Below are positions 27,001 through 33,000 of a stretch of 64,000 nucleotides of DNA, piece by piece. This DNA comes from Vulcanimicrobiota bacterium (GTDB lineage: Bacteria; Vulcanimicrobiota; Vulcanimicrobiia; Vulcanimicrobiales; Vulcanimicrobiaceae), in NCBI GenBank assembly GCA_963714015.1, contig OY970223.1, positions 3,104,001 through 3,168,000 of the forward strand, in the 5' to 3' direction. A program made the position numbers. Within the stretch, counting starts at the first letter, position 1; every line of letters starts with the position of its first letter.

Positions 27001-30000
27001 TTCCGGAACAGGAAATTTCTCACATTTTGGTATCTGCCGGGTCCCTACACGCCAATGTGTGGGTGAAGTGTGCGGGTGTCGATGTTTGCCGAACCGCCGT
27101 TGTCCTAGGATGCCGTCATAACCCATCCTCCGCGAAAGGCAAAAGTTCAGTGAATCATCGTCTCCTGGCCGCAGCGACGGCCTCAGTTCTGGCGGCGCTC
27201 TCGATGGCCGCCTGCGGCGGCGGCTCTTCGGTTCCGGTCGTGAAGACGACCGCGGTTCCGACCACCACTCCCACCACCGCTCCCAAAGTCAACACTCAGG
27301 CATTGTGGGTCGCAAACGGCGCAAACGTCGTTGAGTTCGGCCCTTCACAGCTGACCGCCACGGTCGGCGATCCCATCCCGCAAGCCGCGATTAACAGCAC
27401 CGTCTTCGGCGCGCCTCAGGGCGTCCAATTCGATGCCAAGGGCGACCTGTGGGTCATAGACGGCGGCACAGTGGCAGCCGGAGGAACCATCGCCCCGGCG
27501 CTGTTCGAGTTCACCCCGCAGCAGCTTGCCCAGTTGCACACGAACGCCACGCCCGCTCCGGCCGCGACGATCCGTTTCAACGGCTTCGTCTTTCCGCAGC
27601 AAGGCGTGTTCGACAAGAACGGCAACTTTTGGGTGACGGATAACGGTGCGAATGCCGTCGACGTGTTCTCCCCCTCGGAACTGGCTGCGGGCGGCGCGAA
27701 CGTCGCGCCGATTGCATCCATCTCGGCCGGCTTTACCGGACCGCTCGGCATCGCCTTCGACGCGATGGGCGATCTGTTCGTCGCCAACAACGGCACGACC
27801 ACGATCTTCGGCTTCAAAGCGAGCAAGCTGCCCGCGAGCGGCAACGCGACGCTGACGCCGGACGTCACGCTCTCGGACGACGGGGCGGGTTCCATTCAGG
27901 GGCCGTGGGCATTGGTCTTCGATCAACGCGGCGATCTCTGGTCCAGCAACGCCAACGCGCCGTTCACACTCGTCGAGTTCAGCTCCTCACAGATCGCCGC
28001 ATCGGGTTCGCCGAGGCCGATCGTGACGCTCAGCCCGACCACCGTTCAAGCCAACTCAACGCTGAACGCGCCGAACGGCATCGCGTTCGACAGCATCGGC
28101 GACCTCGCCGCCATCAGCTCCGCAACGCCTTTCGGCGTCGCAGACTTCGGCTTCGCTCAACTCACCAGCAGCGCGGCGGTGCCTCCCACTGCGTTCATGG
28201 TTGGAACGACGACGACGCTCAACGCTCCGGCCGGCGACGTCTTCGGCGCGAGCTTCTAAGCCGCACCGACAATGTTCGGCGATCGCGGGACCCACGTTTC
28301 AGCTAAAAGGAAACGGTGGGCCCCGAGATCCCGACGCTTTGCGAGATCGCGCTCGCAACCGCAGAGGGCGCGATCTCGCAAAAGAACGTCATCTTGGTGA
28401 CGTCGCGTATCGTCCGGTTCGTCGACTCAGCGATGCTGATTGGCTCACTTATGGGAAGCAATGATCTCCGCGTACGTTTTGCTGGCCTCCGTCGGAACGC
28501 GAGTCAGGTTCGGATCGCGATCGAGATCGATATGATAGAGTCCGAAATCGCTGCTGTCGTCGAACGGCAAGCCCCACTCGCGGTTGGAGGTGATGCTCCA
28601 GCAAAGATAGGCGACTACCGGAGAGCCGCGCTGCACCGCGCGATCGACTTGTGCGATGTGCGCCTCCAAGTAACGCGCGCGGGAAAAACCGTCCGCATTC
28701 GTGACGCAGCCGTTTTCGATTACGATGATCGGTTTGCCCGGAAACAACTCTTCCGTTTCACGCAGAATGTCGTCCAGAACGCTGGGCCACACCGGAGCCA
28801 TCGCATAGTGACATTCGGCGGCAGCTGAAAGCCGGTGCAATTCGTTCGGCCAGAACGAGGGGATTCCCCAGTAATAATCGACACCGGCAAAGTCGAGCGC
28901 GCCTACGCACTCCCGCGGACACAGAAACTCCGGCAGCCGGCCGGCCATGCCGAGGTTCCACCAATTCGTGCCCACCAGTGTCCCGAACATTCCAATCGAC
29001 TTGCGCAGTCCGTCGAAGACGTGCAGGGGCGAGCGCGTCGCGTTCAGCCGGCGGTTCCCCGTAACGGGAACGAATCGCACCGGCGCATGCTCCGATCCGA
29101 AGATCTCTGCGGCAATGCAGCGCGCCAAATCGGGTTCCATGCCGGAGTAGTTTCCGCGATCGTCGCACGCGCACAGTCCTTCGACGCCGGGGCGGACTCC
29201 GACGCGCAGAATACCCCGCTTGCGGATCGCTTCCAACGATCGATCCGGTTCGGGTCCGGCGAGGTCAGTGCTCGCCAGCGTGTTGCGGTTGTGTCCCTCG
29301 GGCAGCTCGGGATGACTCTTTTTGTACTTGCGCAGCGCGCGGTCTACGGCATCCAGCAGCGAGCGGCTACCCAGCGCGACGGCCACGCCGTAGGCATGCG
29401 GATGCGCCGGAATCAGCGAGATCGCGAACGGATCGGCTGAATATTGCCGCAGCATCACGTCGTCGTGAAACACGGCGTCGATCGTTCCCTCGCGCAGGGC
29501 CTGAACCGCCGCGTCGGTTTGCGCGTAATAGCGGACGTCAGCGGCGGTAAATATACCGCCGGACATCTCGGCCGCCGGCGTATCCTCCACAACGCCGGCG
29601 CGGCCTTTCCACTCCAGAAGATCCGCAGGCAGCGATGCTGCGGCGCGATGAAGCACCGCTAAGTGCACCAGCAGGTACGGCTCCGAAAAAAAGACTCGAT
29701 GCATCCGCTTCTGGGTCATGGTCAGCTGCGCGATGGAAATGTCCACTTGGCCGCTGTCGACGAAGCCGTGTTCCGCAAGCAGCTTTCCGCGCCGGCGAGC
29801 TTGCTCCGGCGACTTCAGATGCGTGGCATTGCGGTCGACCAGCCGCTGAAGCCAGCGCGGAAGACCGAGGACCAGCGGATTCGAGCCGACCAGTGCTTGC
29901 GGCTGTACGGCGCGGATCGCCTCACGCGCCCGCGCGTGCGCTCGGAACAGGTTCGGAATGAGCTGCAAAACGGCGTCCATCTGACGCTCGCCGGAAGCGC

Positions 30001-33000
30001 CCGGTTCCAGCCCCGGCGGCATGGGATAGGCCCGCATCCAAAAACCTTTGATGAAGCCGTAAACGAGTTGGCTCGGCTCGTTGAGAGTGACGTAATAGTC
30101 GATCAGATCGCCGAGCCGGCTCGCCACTTGTGATGCATAGGCGGCCATGCGCGCCGGAAAATGCGAATCGAGCAATCCGGCTCCGTTTCCCGCCGCCTGC
30201 ACGTGCAGCGGCCATGTATTGTGGTGCAGGGTGACGACAGTCATCATCTGCGCGTCGCGCATGTACTGAAGTACCTCGCGGTAATGCGCGAAAACGGATT
30301 CATCCCAGATGCCGGCTTCGGGCTCGAGCCGTGCCCAGGACAATGAAAGCCGGAAGGCCGAACAGCCTAGCCCCCTGGCGAGATCGACGTCTTCACGGTA
30401 GCGGTTCCAAAAATCGGTTGCCTTACCGCGCGGCGTGAGTCCGCGTACGCGTTCCCAAACGTCGCGCACGTCGTCTTGTCCGTTATAGGCTTCGCATTGG
30501 TGATCGGCGGTGGCCACGCCGAAGCGGTAGCGTTTCTGCATGCGCAACGGATGTTCGCCGCCGAGCGCGAACCCCTCCGGCGCAATGAGATTCAGCAACA
30601 AAACTTGCTTGGTAACGGGAGGCGGTTCCGGAATCGGTCGCGCAACGTGCGTGCGCATGGCTGCCGAAGGCGGAAACGTCGTTGTGGCCGACCTGCACCA
30701 ACAGGCGGCACAGGCAACCGCGGATCAGATTGGAGCCGCGGGCGGGCGCGCGATCGCGGTGGAGCTCGACGTAGGCAACTCCGCGCAGGTCCAAGCGGGC
30801 ATAGCGAAAGCGCTCGAGTCGTTCGGCTCGCTTGACGTCATCGTGAACGACGCCGCGATGATGACCTTTCAGCCGATCGTCGATCTGCCCGAAGCCGATT
30901 TTTTCCGCGTGATTACCACAAACTTAGGGTCGGTATTCTTCTTCGCCAAGTACGGTGTGCCGCATATGCCGCCCGGCTCCTCGATCGTCAACATCAGACT
31001 CCGTGCATGCCCACGAGACGACGGAGAACGTCGTTCCTTACGCGGCTTCAAAAGGCGCGATCGAGTCTTTTACTCGCGGCTTCAGCATCGAGATGGAGTC
31101 GCGGAAGATCCGCGTGAACAGCGTCGCTCCCGGAGCCGTCGATACGCCGATGCTCTGGAACAATCCCAACGTCAAGAGCGGCGCCGAGAAGATCGAAGGT
31201 GCAATCGGAAAACCCGAGGACCTCGCCGCGGCAATCTGCTTCATCGCCTCGGACGAAGCGCGCTTCGTCAATGGAACGACGCTGGTGGTCGACGGCGGCC
31301 GCCTGGATATTCTTTAGATCCTTGCTTTCGGGGAAAGATGCAAGTCATGACTGAGGAACACAAGCGCGAAGGCCTTTTTGAAGACGACGATTTGGACGAC
31401 GCAATCATCAGCGCGGACGATACCGGCATGATCGCGCAGCAGCACGTGATCGCGGAGGAGGAAATCGCCGCGGGCGGAGATTCGGCAGACGAAGACGAGG
31501 ACACGAACCAACCTTGAACTGACCTGCGTGATTTTGGCTGCCGGAACGTCGAGCCGTTTCGGCGGCCGTAATAAGTTGCTCGTGCACGAAGCGGGCCAAA
31601 CGCCGCTCATCGCTCGCGCCATCCGCGCGTGCGCCGGCTTTCCGGTCGTCGCCGTTTGCTCGCTCGAGACCGCGCCGCCCGCTGAAGCTCTGGGCGCCGT
31701 CGTCGTCATGAACGACGCTCCGCAATACGGCATGGCGCACTCGTTGCAACTCGCCGATGCGGCCGTCGCGCCGGAACGGGCGATTGCAATATTGCCCGCC
31801 GATCTCGCCGAGATCGAGCCGCAGCACTTACGCCTGCTCGCGGAGCGCTTCCGCGGCGTCGACGTACTCTATCCGCGTCGCCGTGACGGAACACCCGGGC
31901 ATCCCGTTCTTTTCTCGGCGCAGGCGCGCCGCGGAATTGCGGCCTTACCGCGCGGGGACACCATTCGCATGCTGCGTGCCGCTCCGCGCTTGCGGCGTCT
32001 TGCCGTTGAGATAGACGACGCCTGGCCTTATCATGACGTCGACGGTCCCGGCTTGTGATATTGAGCCGCGAACCGGTATCGAGATCACAACAGCGCTTCG
32101 GGAGCGATCGGCAACTCGCGAACGCGCACGCCGGTCGCGTGATAGACGGCATTTGCGACGGCAGCGGCCGAGCCCGTCATCGCAACTTCGCCAATGCCTT
32201 TGACGTGCGCCGCGTTGATGTGCGGATCGTCTTCTTCGACGATGATGATCTCCGGATACAGAATGTCGGCATGCGTTGGAACCAGATACTCGGAAAGATT
32301 GGCATTCATGATTCGCGCCGTGCGCGTGTCGTAGCGCGTCTTCTCGTAAAGCGCCATGCTGATGCCCCACACGATCCCGCCGAGGAATTGGCTGCGCGCC
32401 GTCTTCTCGTTGAGGATTCGTCCGCCGTCGTAAGCACCGACGAATCGCGTGACGTGCACCGTACCCAAATCCGGATCGACTTCGACTTGAGCAAACTGCG
32501 CGCCGAAGGATTGCTGAGCGAAGTTGCGCTCGACGGATTCGTCGGGTTTGTCCTCTACCGTAAAATCGAAACCGGCCTCCGGAACCTCGCCGCCCGACGC
32601 CTCCAGCGCCGCGGCCAGTTTTTGCGCCGCTGCAACGACCGCCGAACCGACGCTCGCGGCCGTCTGCGAGCCGGCGGCCAAAGGCGCCTCCGGGAGCAGC
32701 GTGTCGCCCCATTCGAAGTGCACGCGTTCGTATGGGAGATTTAGAATCTCCGCGGCAAGCTGCGCGTACACGGTCGAAGATCCCGTGCCTTGTTCGATCG
32801 TGCCGCTCTGCACCCGCACTGCTCCGCCGGCGGACATGATAATGCGAATGGTTGCCGCGCTGCGGTGCACGGAACGCGATGCCGTCGCCATGCCCAGGCC
32901 AACCAGCATCCGGCCGTCGCGCATGGAGCGCGGCTGCGGGTTGCGCCGGCTCCATCCGAAGGCTTCGGCCGCCAGCGTATACGCGCGATCCAGATGTTTG

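Follow-up and report, generated by a model that had tools for sequence, protein, structure and literature searches.

A GH1 beta-glycosidase with a circularly permuted solute-binding protein inserted in its beta5-alpha5 loop

Results and Discussion

The window, a stretch of 64,000 nucleotides from contig OY970223.1 of a Vulcanimicrobiota bacterium, contains an open reading frame that matches glycoside hydrolase family 1 (GH1) in two separated stretches. What is the segment between them, can the enzyme still work, and what may the segment contribute? The ORF is real and intact, and its product is a natural domain-insertion enzyme with GH1 as the host and a solute-binding protein (SBP) as the guest, conserved and under purifying selection. 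As judged from sequence motifs, the glycosidase is apparently active. The initial annotation had proposed a domain insertion in GH1; a conserved, selected insertion enzyme was confirmed, whereas the module was found in the beta5-alpha5 loop and not inside the barrel. No published description of a GH1 enzyme with a permuted SBP insert was found in the literature. The protein is a natural counterpart of the ligand-switched enzymes made by protein engineers. The features of the gene, in ORF numbering, are as follows.

28445..30658, minus strand: whole ORF, 737 aa plus stop (ORF reading of the window)
29879..30541, minus strand: GH1 barrel N-part, beta1 to beta5, aa 40-260 (Pfam PF00232, residues 42-259)
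29810..29878, minus strand: connector 1, aa 261-283, PLVLGLPRWLQRLVDRNATHLKS, conserved helix out of the barrel
29318..29809, minus strand: SBP C-terminal two thirds, first in the chain, aa 284-447 (phmmer, TIGR01096, VIA-align)
29399..29668, minus strand: SBP lobe 2, aa 331-420, including D399 (LAO Asp161 position) and P361 (LAO Thr121 position)
29240..29317, minus strand: linker from the original SBP C-terminus to the original N-terminus, aa 448-473 (26 residues), variable segment
29066..29239, minus strand: SBP N-terminal third, last in the chain, aa 474-531, with beta1 (LRVGV), alpha1 and beta3 (VRFVPV) (phmmer, PRK11917)
29027..29065, minus strand: connector 2, aa 532-544, TGNRRLNATRSP, leading back to the barrel
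28448..29026, minus strand: GH1 barrel C-part, alpha5 to alpha8, aa 545-737 (8znv alignment, 1vff superposition)

The glycosidase barrel

The 737-residue frame was found again, and the Pfam coordinates given for it earlier were reproduced. The true start is likely Met40 at 30541, which yields 698 residues. Most homologues begin 0-8 residues ahead of the FRFGVATADHQ motif in the alignment, and extensions at the N-terminus lack conservation. A clear Shine-Dalgarno sequence precedes neither ATG. The AlphaFold2 model of the 698-residue protein has a mean pLDDT of 90.3 and a pTM of 0.89.

The Glyco_hydro_1 model (PF00232, cutoff 22.6) matches in two stretches with 139.3 bits; the best stretch puts residues 42-259 on model positions 7-218. 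Residues 545-624, missed by the Pfam HMM, are diverged GH1 covering helices alpha5 to alpha6. They were recovered as GH1 by alignment with PDB chain 8znv (query 522-737 on chain 223-443) and by superposition of the predicted model on 1vff (371 of 423 residues, Z 40.6, rmsd 2.6, 27% identity). In this model the (beta/alpha)8 barrel is complete. The part foreign to GH1 spans residues 261-544, about 284 residues, and not about 365 as first estimated.

The N-part of the barrel holds the glycone motifs Q54 and H146; its TLNEPS segment carries the acid/base residue Glu194 (nt 30077-30079). The C-part holds beta6 with DYYW, the nucleophile Glu648 in VIENGC (nt 28715-28717), SNREW and the clade motif NWWNLGMAGxLPxFLCPxEC. 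The catalytic glutamates, left unchecked in the initial annotation, are both present and align with the motifs of 4r27 and 1vff. The N-E-P and E-N-G triplets are invariant in the family alignment (119/119 near and 19/19 far members, 138/138 together). Residues Q54, H146, Y595/Y596, E694 and W695 do not vary among the 119 near members, and by motif register with canonical GH1 enzymes they presumably have glycone roles. The protein is thus predicted to be a catalytically competent retaining GH1 beta-glycosidase. However, the equivalog model TIGR03356 (GH1 family beta-glucosidase) gives 156.4 bits, far below its cutoff of 478.5; membership in GH1 is indicated by sequence, and the name of a standard beta-glucosidase should not be used.

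A permuted solute-binding protein

Strand beta5 and helix alpha5 flank the insert, which lies on the barrel's catalytic face. The insertion point immediately follows the invariant Asn that closes beta5 (strand E217-221 of the model, Met40 numbering). The SBP_bac_3 model (PF00497, cutoff 26.4) matches residues 300-448 with 46.3 bits, on model positions 54-119 of 132. Such a match had suggested that the segment resembles an SBP only in part. Yet, according to two independent sequence comparisons, the insert is a complete family-3 (class-F, amino-acid type) SBP that is circularly permuted.

The first comparison, phmmer against the PDB, aligned insert residues 39-187 with AncQR 65-220 (E 2.3e-12), residues 211-276 with 1xt8 34-98, and residues 214-282 with 4z9n 12-79. 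The second used NCBIfam models: TIGR01096 matched ORF residues 301-446 on positions 80-237 of 250, and PRK11917 matched residues 471-536 on positions 27-92 of 259. The order of the segments is swapped, as ORF 300-448 corresponds to SBP positions of about 65-220 and ORF 471-543 to about 8-92. Structure searches with a model of the insert alone are consistent with the permutation. The 50 PDB matches listed (Z 9.9-14.1) are mostly of SBP type (PBP-fold), and the listed family-3 amino-acid SBPs align over the C-part only (5owf: model 41-191 on chain 81-245, Z 13.4). VIA-align likewise placed model residues 41-192 on 4zv2 residues 66-227 (Z 13.3).

The C-terminal two thirds of the SBP thus come first and contain helix alpha2, the lobe-1 strand with T313 and R318, the whole of lobe 2, and a return to lobe 1. 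From the barrel the chain passes along the conserved helix into the SBP at alpha2, goes from lobe 1 to lobe 2 and back, and continues over the 26-residue linker. It then completes lobe 1 (beta1-alpha1-beta3) and re-enters the barrel. Both connectors therefore join lobe 1 at the cleft mouth, and lobe 2 is free to swing. The cut, mapped by sequence matches, falls in the beta3-alpha2 loop, the loop of the ligand-contacting Phe52 in LAO (contact table of PMC5740067), and hence both connectors exit the SBP at the mouth of the cleft. The linker has the lowest confidence of the full model (10-residue block, mean pLDDT 66) and varies in both length and sequence, with 39% identity to the window protein among the 119 near members. 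No signal peptide or lipobox is visible in the window protein, whose N-terminus leads directly into GH1 strand beta1. The enzyme is probably cytoplasmic.

Distribution and gene context

The family forms one GH1 clade. It was found with the same single-frame architecture at 421 species-level loci in Eremiobacterota and in many metagenome contigs. Bins with the labels Verrucomicrobiota and Thermoflexales contain it as well. The full-length single-frame relatives in genomes G029, G120, G111, G113 and G137, noted earlier, were found again. A head-to-head neighbour lies upstream of the gene.

30585..31317, plus strand: SDR oxidoreductase (glucose-1-dehydrogenase-like), divergent from the GH1 gene (Pfam adh_short, N-part of the ORF only)

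Of 99 related loci, 58 have the SDR gene, in most cases directly next to the GH1 start. The copy in the window is broken by a frameshift near 30995-31000 (three-frame reading), which shows that this assembly is not free of indel errors or decay. The intact homologue in locus L004 scores 204 bits against NF005559, whose cutoff is 215. No ABC-transporter genes were observed among the neighbours in the window, among conserved neighbours in 80 related loci, or in a Pfam scan of 31 neighbour ORFs of distant loci. No conserved operon was observed in the 30 distant loci examined, where the neighbours are heterogeneous. The genomic context points to no ligand or substrate.

Conservation, selection and natural loss

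Connector 1 is the most conserved region, with a mean identity of 86% to the window protein among the 119 near members, and the G and P of its GLP motif are invariant. The Arg of ATRS in connector 2 (R498, Met40 numbering) is nearly invariant. Such top conservation of the connectors is expected if the glycosidase and the SBP are mechanically coupled. Both connectors are also retained in SBP-less relatives. Of the folded regions, lobe 2 shows the least conservation (41% identity among the same 119 members). A dN/dS of 0.08 was calculated for GH1, compared with 0.13 in lobe 1 and 0.25 in lobe 2 (199 non-independent pairs among 96 genes), and each of these values is well under 1. Thus the insert is under purifying selection, with lobe 2 being the least constrained.

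These data bear on the possibility that the protein is an inactive pseudo-enzyme, or that the ORF is an artefact of annotation or assembly, such as a chimeric ORF or a decaying gene. Visibly decaying relatives do exist, as the gene is in fragments with stops in genomes G047, G049 and G146, and the SDR gene in the window is frameshifted. However, an artefact would hardly recur in a single frame at 421 genome loci and in metagenome contigs, and the invariant catalytic and glycone motifs, the dN/dS values of 0.08-0.25 and the confident fold prediction all argue against inactivity, which the initial annotation had considered. This explanation is extremely improbable and is essentially refuted by the conservation.

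Lobe 2 has been cleanly deleted in P0095, P0104, P0112 and P0139, and, with open frames, in genomes G055, G151, G122, G152, G181 and one unpublished genome. In G122, where the gene had been described as split in two pieces, there is a single open frame of 610 aa lacking lobe 2 (query 36-328 plus 421-734). The SBP-less L107 is 76% identical to the SBP-bearing L104 over 466 aligned residues and is nested inside the clade with SH-aLRT support of 100. Since lobe 2 or the whole SBP was lost several times while GH1 stayed intact, the SBP domain is accessory and not essential. Since lobe-1-only lineages exist, some of the insert is of use even where the cleft is missing.

The ligand site and the role of the insert

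Ligand-contact positions of LAO, taken from a table in PMC5740067, were mapped onto the insert through the AncQR alignment. The window protein has T313, R318 and D399 at the positions of Ser72, Arg77 and Asp161, and Pro361 at that of Thr121. Arg at the Arg77 position is found in 119/119 near and 16/19 far members (135/138 overall), including the near members without lobe 2. Thr or Ser occupies the Ser72 position in 105/119 near and 16/19 far members (121/138), and Asp the Asp161 position in 83/119 and 18/19 (101/138). The Thr121 position is Pro in 51, Leu in 39 and Ala in 15 of the 119 near members and Thr or Ser in 12 of the 19 far ones; the position beside it is Thr or Ser in only 49 of the 119. 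Among the far members, 16/19 to 18/19 retain the full canonical G-S/T-T motif and the Asp motif. In the clade of the window protein, therefore, the canonical amino-acid site has decayed on its lobe-2 side, and by these residues classical binding of alpha-amino acids is doubtful.

The SBP most likely serves as a ligand-dependent gate or as a module for aglycone recognition. Our first choice, though its chances are somewhat less than even, is an accessory ligand-sensing gate grafted on a retaining GH1 beta-glycosidase that is cytoplasmic and competent in catalysis. A ligand of carboxylate or alpha-amino-acid type would bind between the lobes and close lobe 2. With lobe 2 closed, the aglycone side of the glycosidase site would be reached differently or take another shape, and the activity would thereby come to depend on the ligand.

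Another possibility, which we regard as rather doubtful, is that the two domains build a composite active site. Here the SBP would form the aglycone (+1) subsite for beta-glycosides with an amino-acid or carboxylate aglycone, such as glycosyl-amino acids; the Arg/Thr/Asp triad would clamp the backbone and the side chain would enter the -1 pocket of GH1. The insertion directly after the Asn ending beta5 fits this, as we take this Asn to occupy the position of Asn245 of rice BGlu1, which is in contact with aglycone-side sugars. The cut in the beta3-alpha2 (Phe52) loop fits as well, since it tethers the cleft mouth to the catalytic face (contact table of PMC5740067), and the pTM of 0.89 suggests a fixed arrangement of the domains in the predicted structure. 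Among the matches listed, SocA is the best structural (Z 14.1) and the second-best sequence match (E 5.7e-11) of the insert, and its ligand, deoxyfructosyl-glutamine, is a sugar-amino-acid conjugate. However, ordinary amino-acid binders reach Z 13.1-13.5, a statistical tie with SocA. Moreover, repeated complete loss of the SBP with GH1 conserved would be unexpected if the SBP gave essential substrate contacts, and the decay of the lobe-2 site residues likewise.

An unlikely alternative is that the SBP, mainly through lobe 1, is a purely structural module, that is, a lid, a stabiliser or an oligomerisation surface, with no small molecule bound and the site a relic. It would explain the persistence of lobe-1-only open frames, the fastest evolution being in lobe 2 among the folded parts, and the loss of the canonical lobe-2 ligand residues in most near members. 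It would not explain why all 119 near members, lobe-2-less ones included, have Arg at the carboxylate-clamp position, why lobe 2 is clearly under purifying selection (dN/dS 0.25), or why the far members keep the canonical motifs.

Comparison with known systems

The fold, the NEP acid/base and ENG nucleophile motifs and, by register, the Q/H/Y/E-W glycone motifs are common to the window protein and GH1 beta-glycosidases such as P. horikoshii BGPh (1vff), BGL167 (4r27) and Thermotoga maritima BglA. It differs from them in the 284-residue foreign domain of the beta5-alpha5 loop and in the clade-specific ADHQCEA, NWWxLGMAGxLPxFLCPxEC and several conserved Cys. Among solved chains, none spans more than the barrel of the window protein (best query-normalised TM-score 0.47).

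The insert has the two-lobe type II fold of family-3/class-F SBPs, namely LAO/HisJ, GlnBP, AncQR (4zv1) and SocA (5lom) (Z 13-14), and keeps equivalents of Ser72, Arg77 and Asp161. In contrast to these proteins, it is permuted, lies inside an enzyme and has no transporter genes nearby; its Thr121 equivalent is Pro, and its Phe52-equivalent loop is the cut point.

MltF also unites an SBP_bac_3 module with a glycan-cleaving catalytic domain in nature, and the module allosterically regulates the catalytic domain. The NCBIfam MltF model matches the insert weakly (E 0.0025). Unlike in the window protein, the SBP of MltF is fused in tandem at the N-terminus, with no permutation or insertion, and the enzyme is a periplasmic lytic transglycosylase. 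The ligand-binding cores of iGluR and GluR0, which are among the sequence and structure matches of the insert, are another case in nature where the family-3 SBP fold takes part in a domain insertion. Their SBP is the host of an inserted channel, whereas in the window protein the SBP is inserted into the enzyme.

Switches of MBP and TEM-1 beta-lactamase were made by domain insertion and circular permutation. A chimera of xylanase and xylose-binding protein is a further engineered switch (described in PMC4896006). In these constructs as in the window protein, a periplasmic-binding-protein (PBP) fold is combined with an enzyme through insertion, and circular permutation brings the termini close to each other. 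However, the switches are laboratory constructs, whereas the architecture described here is natural, old, present in several phyla and selected, with the binding protein as the permuted guest and the enzyme as the host.

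Reading frame and start site

The minus-strand frame at 28445-30658 is open and encodes 737 aa. A repeat Pfam search returned the two-stretch GH1 match and the SBP_bac_3 match of the initial annotation at the same coordinates. Glyco_hydro_1 scores 139.3 bits over two stretches, the best being residues 42-259 on model positions 7-218, and SBP_bac_3 scores 46.3 bits at residues 300-448. NCBIfam gives the same picture of GH1 plus a binding protein (SBP), with the GH1 equivalog model at 156 bits against a cutoff of 478.5.

Met40 is probably the true start, giving a protein of 698 aa, because most homologues in the family alignment begin a few residues upstream of the motif FRFGVATADHQ, and the N-terminal extensions of some homologues are not conserved. 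Two numberings are therefore used: ORF numbers start at Met1 of the 737-aa frame (window position 30658, minus strand), and M40 numbers at Met40 (window position 30541), the ORF number being the M40 number plus 39. No clear ribosome-binding site was observed at either Met1 or Met40, and a promoter and terminator scan gave nothing above chance. From Met40 onward the chain enters GH1 strand beta1 directly, with no hydrophobic leader, and thus we infer that the protein is cytoplasmic. A distant family member, the representative P0123, has a hydrophobic, transmembrane-like N-terminal extension of about 25 residues. The closest solved GH1 structure, 1vff, has been described as membrane-associated. 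Certain members of the family may be membrane-anchored.

The catalytic barrel

The 698-aa form was modelled with AlphaFold2 from a family alignment of 50 sequences with 35-80% identity to the window protein (mean pLDDT 90.3, pTM 0.89). In a structure search against 48,161 PDB representatives GH1 enzymes ranked at the top. The best match was the beta-glycosidase of Pyrococcus horikoshii (1vff): Z is 40.6 and rmsd 2.6 over 371 aligned residues of its 423, at 27% identity. The Foldseek matches of the full model listed for the PDB are GH1 chains only; none of those listed spans both domains, and the best query-normalised TM-score is 0.47. One of the alignments places query residues 522-737 on residues 223-443 of 8znv. 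Given the 1vff superposition and the barrel-only Foldseek matches, the GH1 model positions 218-337, which the Pfam HMM leaves unmatched, are mostly present but diverged.

A larger alignment covers 138 family members. Of these, 119 share at least 55% identity with the window protein and are called near; the 19 far members share 35-54%. The catalytic glutamates had been left unchecked in the initial annotation. Both are present and invariant in 138/138 members: Glu194 in the acid/base motif N-E-P and Glu648 in the nucleophile motif E-N-G. Residues Q54, H146, Y595/Y596, W687, E694 and W695, which by motif register we take to be the glycone-binding residues of canonical GH1, are found in 119/119 near members and are nearly invariant in far ones, and the register of the glycone motifs agrees with 4r27 and 1vff. 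By these residues, the window protein should be an active retaining beta-glycosidase. It is the sole GH1 match found in its genome; the second match, at E 3.5e-5, is below the GH1 level.

The GH1 clade also has an unusual set of conserved cysteines (ORF residues C55, C99, C496, C580, C584, C651 and C686 in the family alignment). Their motifs are ADHQC, GLGC, FLCPxEC, ENGC and YLCWS, together with GLC in the N-terminal part of the SBP (119/119 near members). The cysteine pair of CPxEC could be joined in a disulfide or bind a metal.

The insert is a permuted binding protein

The foreign segment has the following parts (M40 numbering).

Foreign segment and its parts
222-505 (ORF 261-544, window 29027-29878, minus strand): whole foreign segment, 284 aa
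222-244: connector 1, a helix
245-291: SBP helix alpha2 and the lobe-1 strand with T-x-T-x-x-R
292-381: lobe 2
382-408: return to lobe 1
409-434: linker that bridges the old C-terminus and the old N-terminus, 26 residues, poorly conserved, low confidence
435-492: old beta1-alpha1-beta3 of lobe 1
493-505: connector 2

In the model and the alignment, the insert lies between barrel strand beta5 (M40 217-221, with an invariant Asn at its end) and helix alpha5. This position places it, as modelled, in a loop on the C-terminal, that is the catalytic, face of the barrel.

Insert residues 39-187 resemble positions 65-220 of AncQR, an ancestral Gln/Arg binder (E 2.3e-12 in the comparison with PDB chains), and the equivalent stretch of SocA, LAO-type and GlnH-type proteins. 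The N-terminal positions 8-98 of other family-3 proteins (1xt8, 4z9n) are matched by insert residues 211-282. The swapped order of blocks was recovered independently in NCBIfam, where residues 301-446 match positions 80-237 of a 250-position model and residues 471-536 match positions 27-92 of a 259-position model. The resemblance to SBP_bac_3 had been described as only partial; by the PDB-chain and NCBIfam comparisons the domain is whole, with its segments in swapped order. The insert is thus a complete, circularly permuted family-3 binding protein, and the order of the segments along the chain puts the cut after old strand beta3 and before helix alpha2.

When the insert was modelled by itself with AlphaFold2 (38 sequences, pLDDT 82.8), the model had 50 listed PDB matches with Z 9.9-14.1. 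Most of these have the family-3 or PBP fold (amino-acid SBPs, GluR0/iGluR cores, related enzymes and sensors). The family-3 amino-acid SBPs listed align only over the C-terminal part of the SBP, e.g. residues 66-227 of 4zv2 on positions 41-192 of the insert model, and residues 81-245 of 5owf (LAO) on positions 41-191, as a sequential aligner would do with a permuted domain. ESM Atlas returned generic SBP_bac_3 clusters only, at 0.84, the meaningful level being 0.9.

In the LAO-binding protein the beta3-alpha2 loop carries Phe52, which a table of PMC5740067 lists as a ligand contact. As the cut is in this loop, both tethers exit at the mouth of the cleft, both on lobe 1, leaving lobe 2 free to move. 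The tethers are highly conserved and join the cleft mouth of the flytrap to the rim of the catalytic face. The permutation could simply have arisen when the middle part of a tandem SBD-SBD gene was captured; the tandem-SBD protein GlnPQ (6h30) is among the PDB matches of the insert by both sequence and structure. A mobile-element or intein-like insert was ruled out by the SBP homology and by a GC content of 0.62-0.67, close to that of the flanks.

Distribution and origin

A word-index search gave 813 matches, and both Pfam domains are present in 120/120 of those listed. The source names are Vulcanimicrobiaceae, Baltobacteraceae, Eremiobacterota and one 'Binatia' bin. A match at E<=1e-20 occurs in 65 of 201 genomes sampled from the phylum. 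By family, with the window's own genome left out, these are 58/113 in f1, 2/3 in f2, 3/15 in f3 and 1/6 in f13, the last being an ordinary GH1 of 425 aa; the remaining families of this sample have no match at the same threshold. One-genome-per-species records encode a relative at 421 loci, the best 80 of which are all titled Eremiobacterota/Vulcanimicrobiota or unclassified 'bacterium'.

An exhaustive profile-free search added about 20 full-length representatives with 35-55% identity; for two of these, the clusters include members labelled Verrucomicrobiota and Thermoflexales. Distant members also served as seeds for a metagenome scan, which gave 531 relatives, from which 67 distinct loci were kept. 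A motif filter recognised a complete gene in 41 of the 67: 31 with the full insert, one without lobe 2 and nine without the SBP.

Trees were built on the GH1 part alone. In both, all proteins with the insert group with their short relatives in a single clade, apart from the nearest ordinary GH1s (SH-aLRT 99). Since the insertion point and the cut point are shared, we read this as a single origin of the insertion.

An assembly chimera, a split gene or a frameshift artefact was ruled out by the one-frame architecture in the 120/120 listed matches, the 421 loci and the metagenome contigs. More generally, it is extremely improbable that we are dealing with an artefact or a pseudo-enzyme. Decayed copies, fragments with in-frame stops, were found in genomes G047, G049, G146, G125, G154 and G184, and two gene copies in G125, G182, G191, G173 and G174; the family thus undergoes duplication and loss.

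Ligand site and selection

Ligand positions were mapped through the AncQR alignment onto the LAO contact list of PMC5740067. In the window protein, T313 corresponds to LAO Ser72, R318 to Arg77, Pro361 to Thr121 and D399 to Asp161.

Residues at the mapped ligand positions (near; far members)
LAO Arg77, Arg kept: 119/119; 16/19
LAO Ser72, Ser/Thr kept: 105/119; 16/19
LAO Asp161, Asp kept: 83/119; 18/19
LAO Thr121: P/L/A in 105/119; T/S in 12/19
position before LAO Thr121, Ser/Thr kept: 49/119; 16/19

By these counts the far members look like canonical alpha-amino-acid binders, whereas the Eremiobacterota clade appears to have retained the lobe-1 half of the site, the lobe-2 half having drifted.

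Regional conservation was calculated as the average identity of near members to the window protein, and dN/dS by the Nei-Gojobori method from 199 non-independent pairs (80-97% protein identity) among 96 genes.

Conservation and selection by region
GH1: identity 77% (N-part) and 72% (C-part); dN/dS 0.08
connectors: identity 86% (connector 1); dN/dS 0.12 (connectors)
lobe 1: identity 52-60% (pieces); dN/dS 0.13
linker: identity 39%; dN/dS 0.13
lobe 2: identity 41%; dN/dS 0.25

The entire insert is under purifying selection. By dN/dS, constraint on lobe 2 is about three times weaker than on the barrel.

Natural deletions and the role of the insert

Lobe 2 alone is cleanly excised in the protein representatives P0095, P0104, P0112 and P0139, and also in genomes G055, G151, G122, G152, G181 and the unpublished genome G178. 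In G055, about four genome-encoded residues separate query residues 1-330 from 421-736. One explanation is that the SBP is a purely structural lid. Forms with lobe 1 alone speak for a lid, as does the drift of lobe 2, but an Arg that is invariant and a lobe-2 dN/dS of 0.25 argue against it, and we consider it quite unlikely.

The whole SBP is absent from P0140, P0143, P0148, P0151, P0152, P0160 and nine metagenome genes, where connector 1, the next helix and connector 2 are still present. The SBP-less locus L107 has 76% identity to the SBP-bearing L104 over 466 aligned residues and sits amid five SBP-bearing sequences in a clade that has an SH-aLRT of 100; by this placement and identity it is a clear secondary loss. 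The SBP-less sequences require 10 changes on the tree, at least three of them forced by well-supported branches alone. The clade begins in a polytomy, compatible with either an SBP-less or an SBP-bearing ancestor. Whichever state was ancestral, the enzyme survives without the SBP, which is therefore accessory.

Another possibility is that barrel and SBP form a composite site for glycoside substrates whose aglycone is amino-acid-like. The location of the cut and of the insertion point favours it, but the SBP losses weaken it; we consider it rather unlikely.

Repeated loss of a module is the kind of change that regulators tolerate, and so we tentatively favour, as plausible though short of probable, a ligand-dependent gate of the glycosidase. 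Lobe 2 would close around a ligand of carboxylate or amino-acid type and so change how the aglycone side of the site is reached. A precedent from nature is MltF, in which an SBP_bac_3 module controls a glycan-cleaving domain. A doubtful but possible further reading is that permutation and insertion, the means that protein engineers employ, gave a long-kept, multi-phylum, single-chain ligand-gated glycosidase. In it the cleft mouth of an amino-acid-type Venus flytrap would be tethered to the rim of the GH1 active site, and hydrolysis would need closure of the flytrap on a specific small molecule, either a free effector or the amino-acid part of a glycoconjugate substrate. The lobe-2-less and SBP-less relatives would then be natural 'switch-off' controls.

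Relation to known systems

By sequence and model the glycosidase is intact, and the flytrap is intact, under selection and permuted. TIM-barrel glycosidases and periplasmic-binding-protein flytraps are among the best-studied folds. Circular permutation combined with whole-domain insertion is rare in nature and informative on multidomain evolution. GH1 enzymes and family-3 SBPs are both known kinds of protein; the architecture that combines them is apparently undescribed. Public databases already hold such proteins as 'family 1 glycosylhydrolase' and 'beta-glucosidase/.../ABC-type amino acid transport substrate-binding'. No account of a GH1-SBP fusion was found in searches of the main full texts of papers; the one paper with both Pfam names has them in separate table rows and not as a fusion. 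The available passages of PMC12632509 do not describe such a fusion. Among the nearest published things is a xylanase-xylose-binding-protein fusion, which according to passages of PMC4896006 is an engineered chimera, whereas the GH1-SBP protein is natural.

The protein is of real interest for protein evolution and engineering. The conserved connectors, the tolerated cut point and the truncated variants make it a natural template, with boundaries, for ligand-controlled glycosidases. Its GH1 clade, still uncharacterised, is widespread in Eremiobacterota, a phylum of soil and peat that is mostly uncultured. Ligand gating, if true, would add a new principle to the regulation of glycoside hydrolases.

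Genomic context

The window gene stands alone, between a convergent NHL-repeat gene on one side and a divergent SDR gene on the other. The SDR gene is present in 58/99 homologous loci, its start mostly abutting the GH1 start, and no other neighbour is conserved. An intact copy (locus L004, 3633-4421) is glucose-1-dehydrogenase-like, with 204 bits against NF005559 (cutoff 215). The SDR of the window itself (30585-31317, plus strand) has a frameshift near 30995-31000: the N-terminal part with TGGGSGIG is in one frame and the C-terminal part with the catalytic motif YAASK in the next. A pseudogene would explain this, as would an indel error in the single-contig assembly.

The neighbours in distant lineages are mixed (LysM, two patatins, two metallo-beta-lactamases, GSDH, GMC oxidoreductase, SDR, esterase, GT2 and others), and none of the 31 neighbour ORFs is a transporter gene. 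Sugar oxidoreductases of three unrelated families account for 3/31.

Sugar oxidoreductases beside distant loci
L108, 888-3053: GSDH
L131, 4980-6923: GMC with a gluconate-2-dehydrogenase subunit-3 domain
L112, 9278-10084: SDR

As they echo the SDR neighbour in Eremiobacterota, there is a hint that the released sugar may be oxidised. However, this is a weak lead.

Other genes observed in the window are the following.

31528-35461: MobA-like nucleotidyl transferase adjoining the molybdopterin large subunit of xanthine-dehydrogenase/CO-dehydrogenase type and the FAD-binding subunit
21732-23501, minus strand: 589-aa ORF with no Pfam or NCBIfam match at E<=1e-3
24025-26415, minus strand: 796-aa protein with an N-terminal HTH (XRE-type), a STAND/NB-ARC NTPase and TPR repeats

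The molybdoenzyme cluster is unrelated to the GH1-SBP gene. By its domains, the 796-aa protein is a predicted regulator of the signal-transducing ATPase type.
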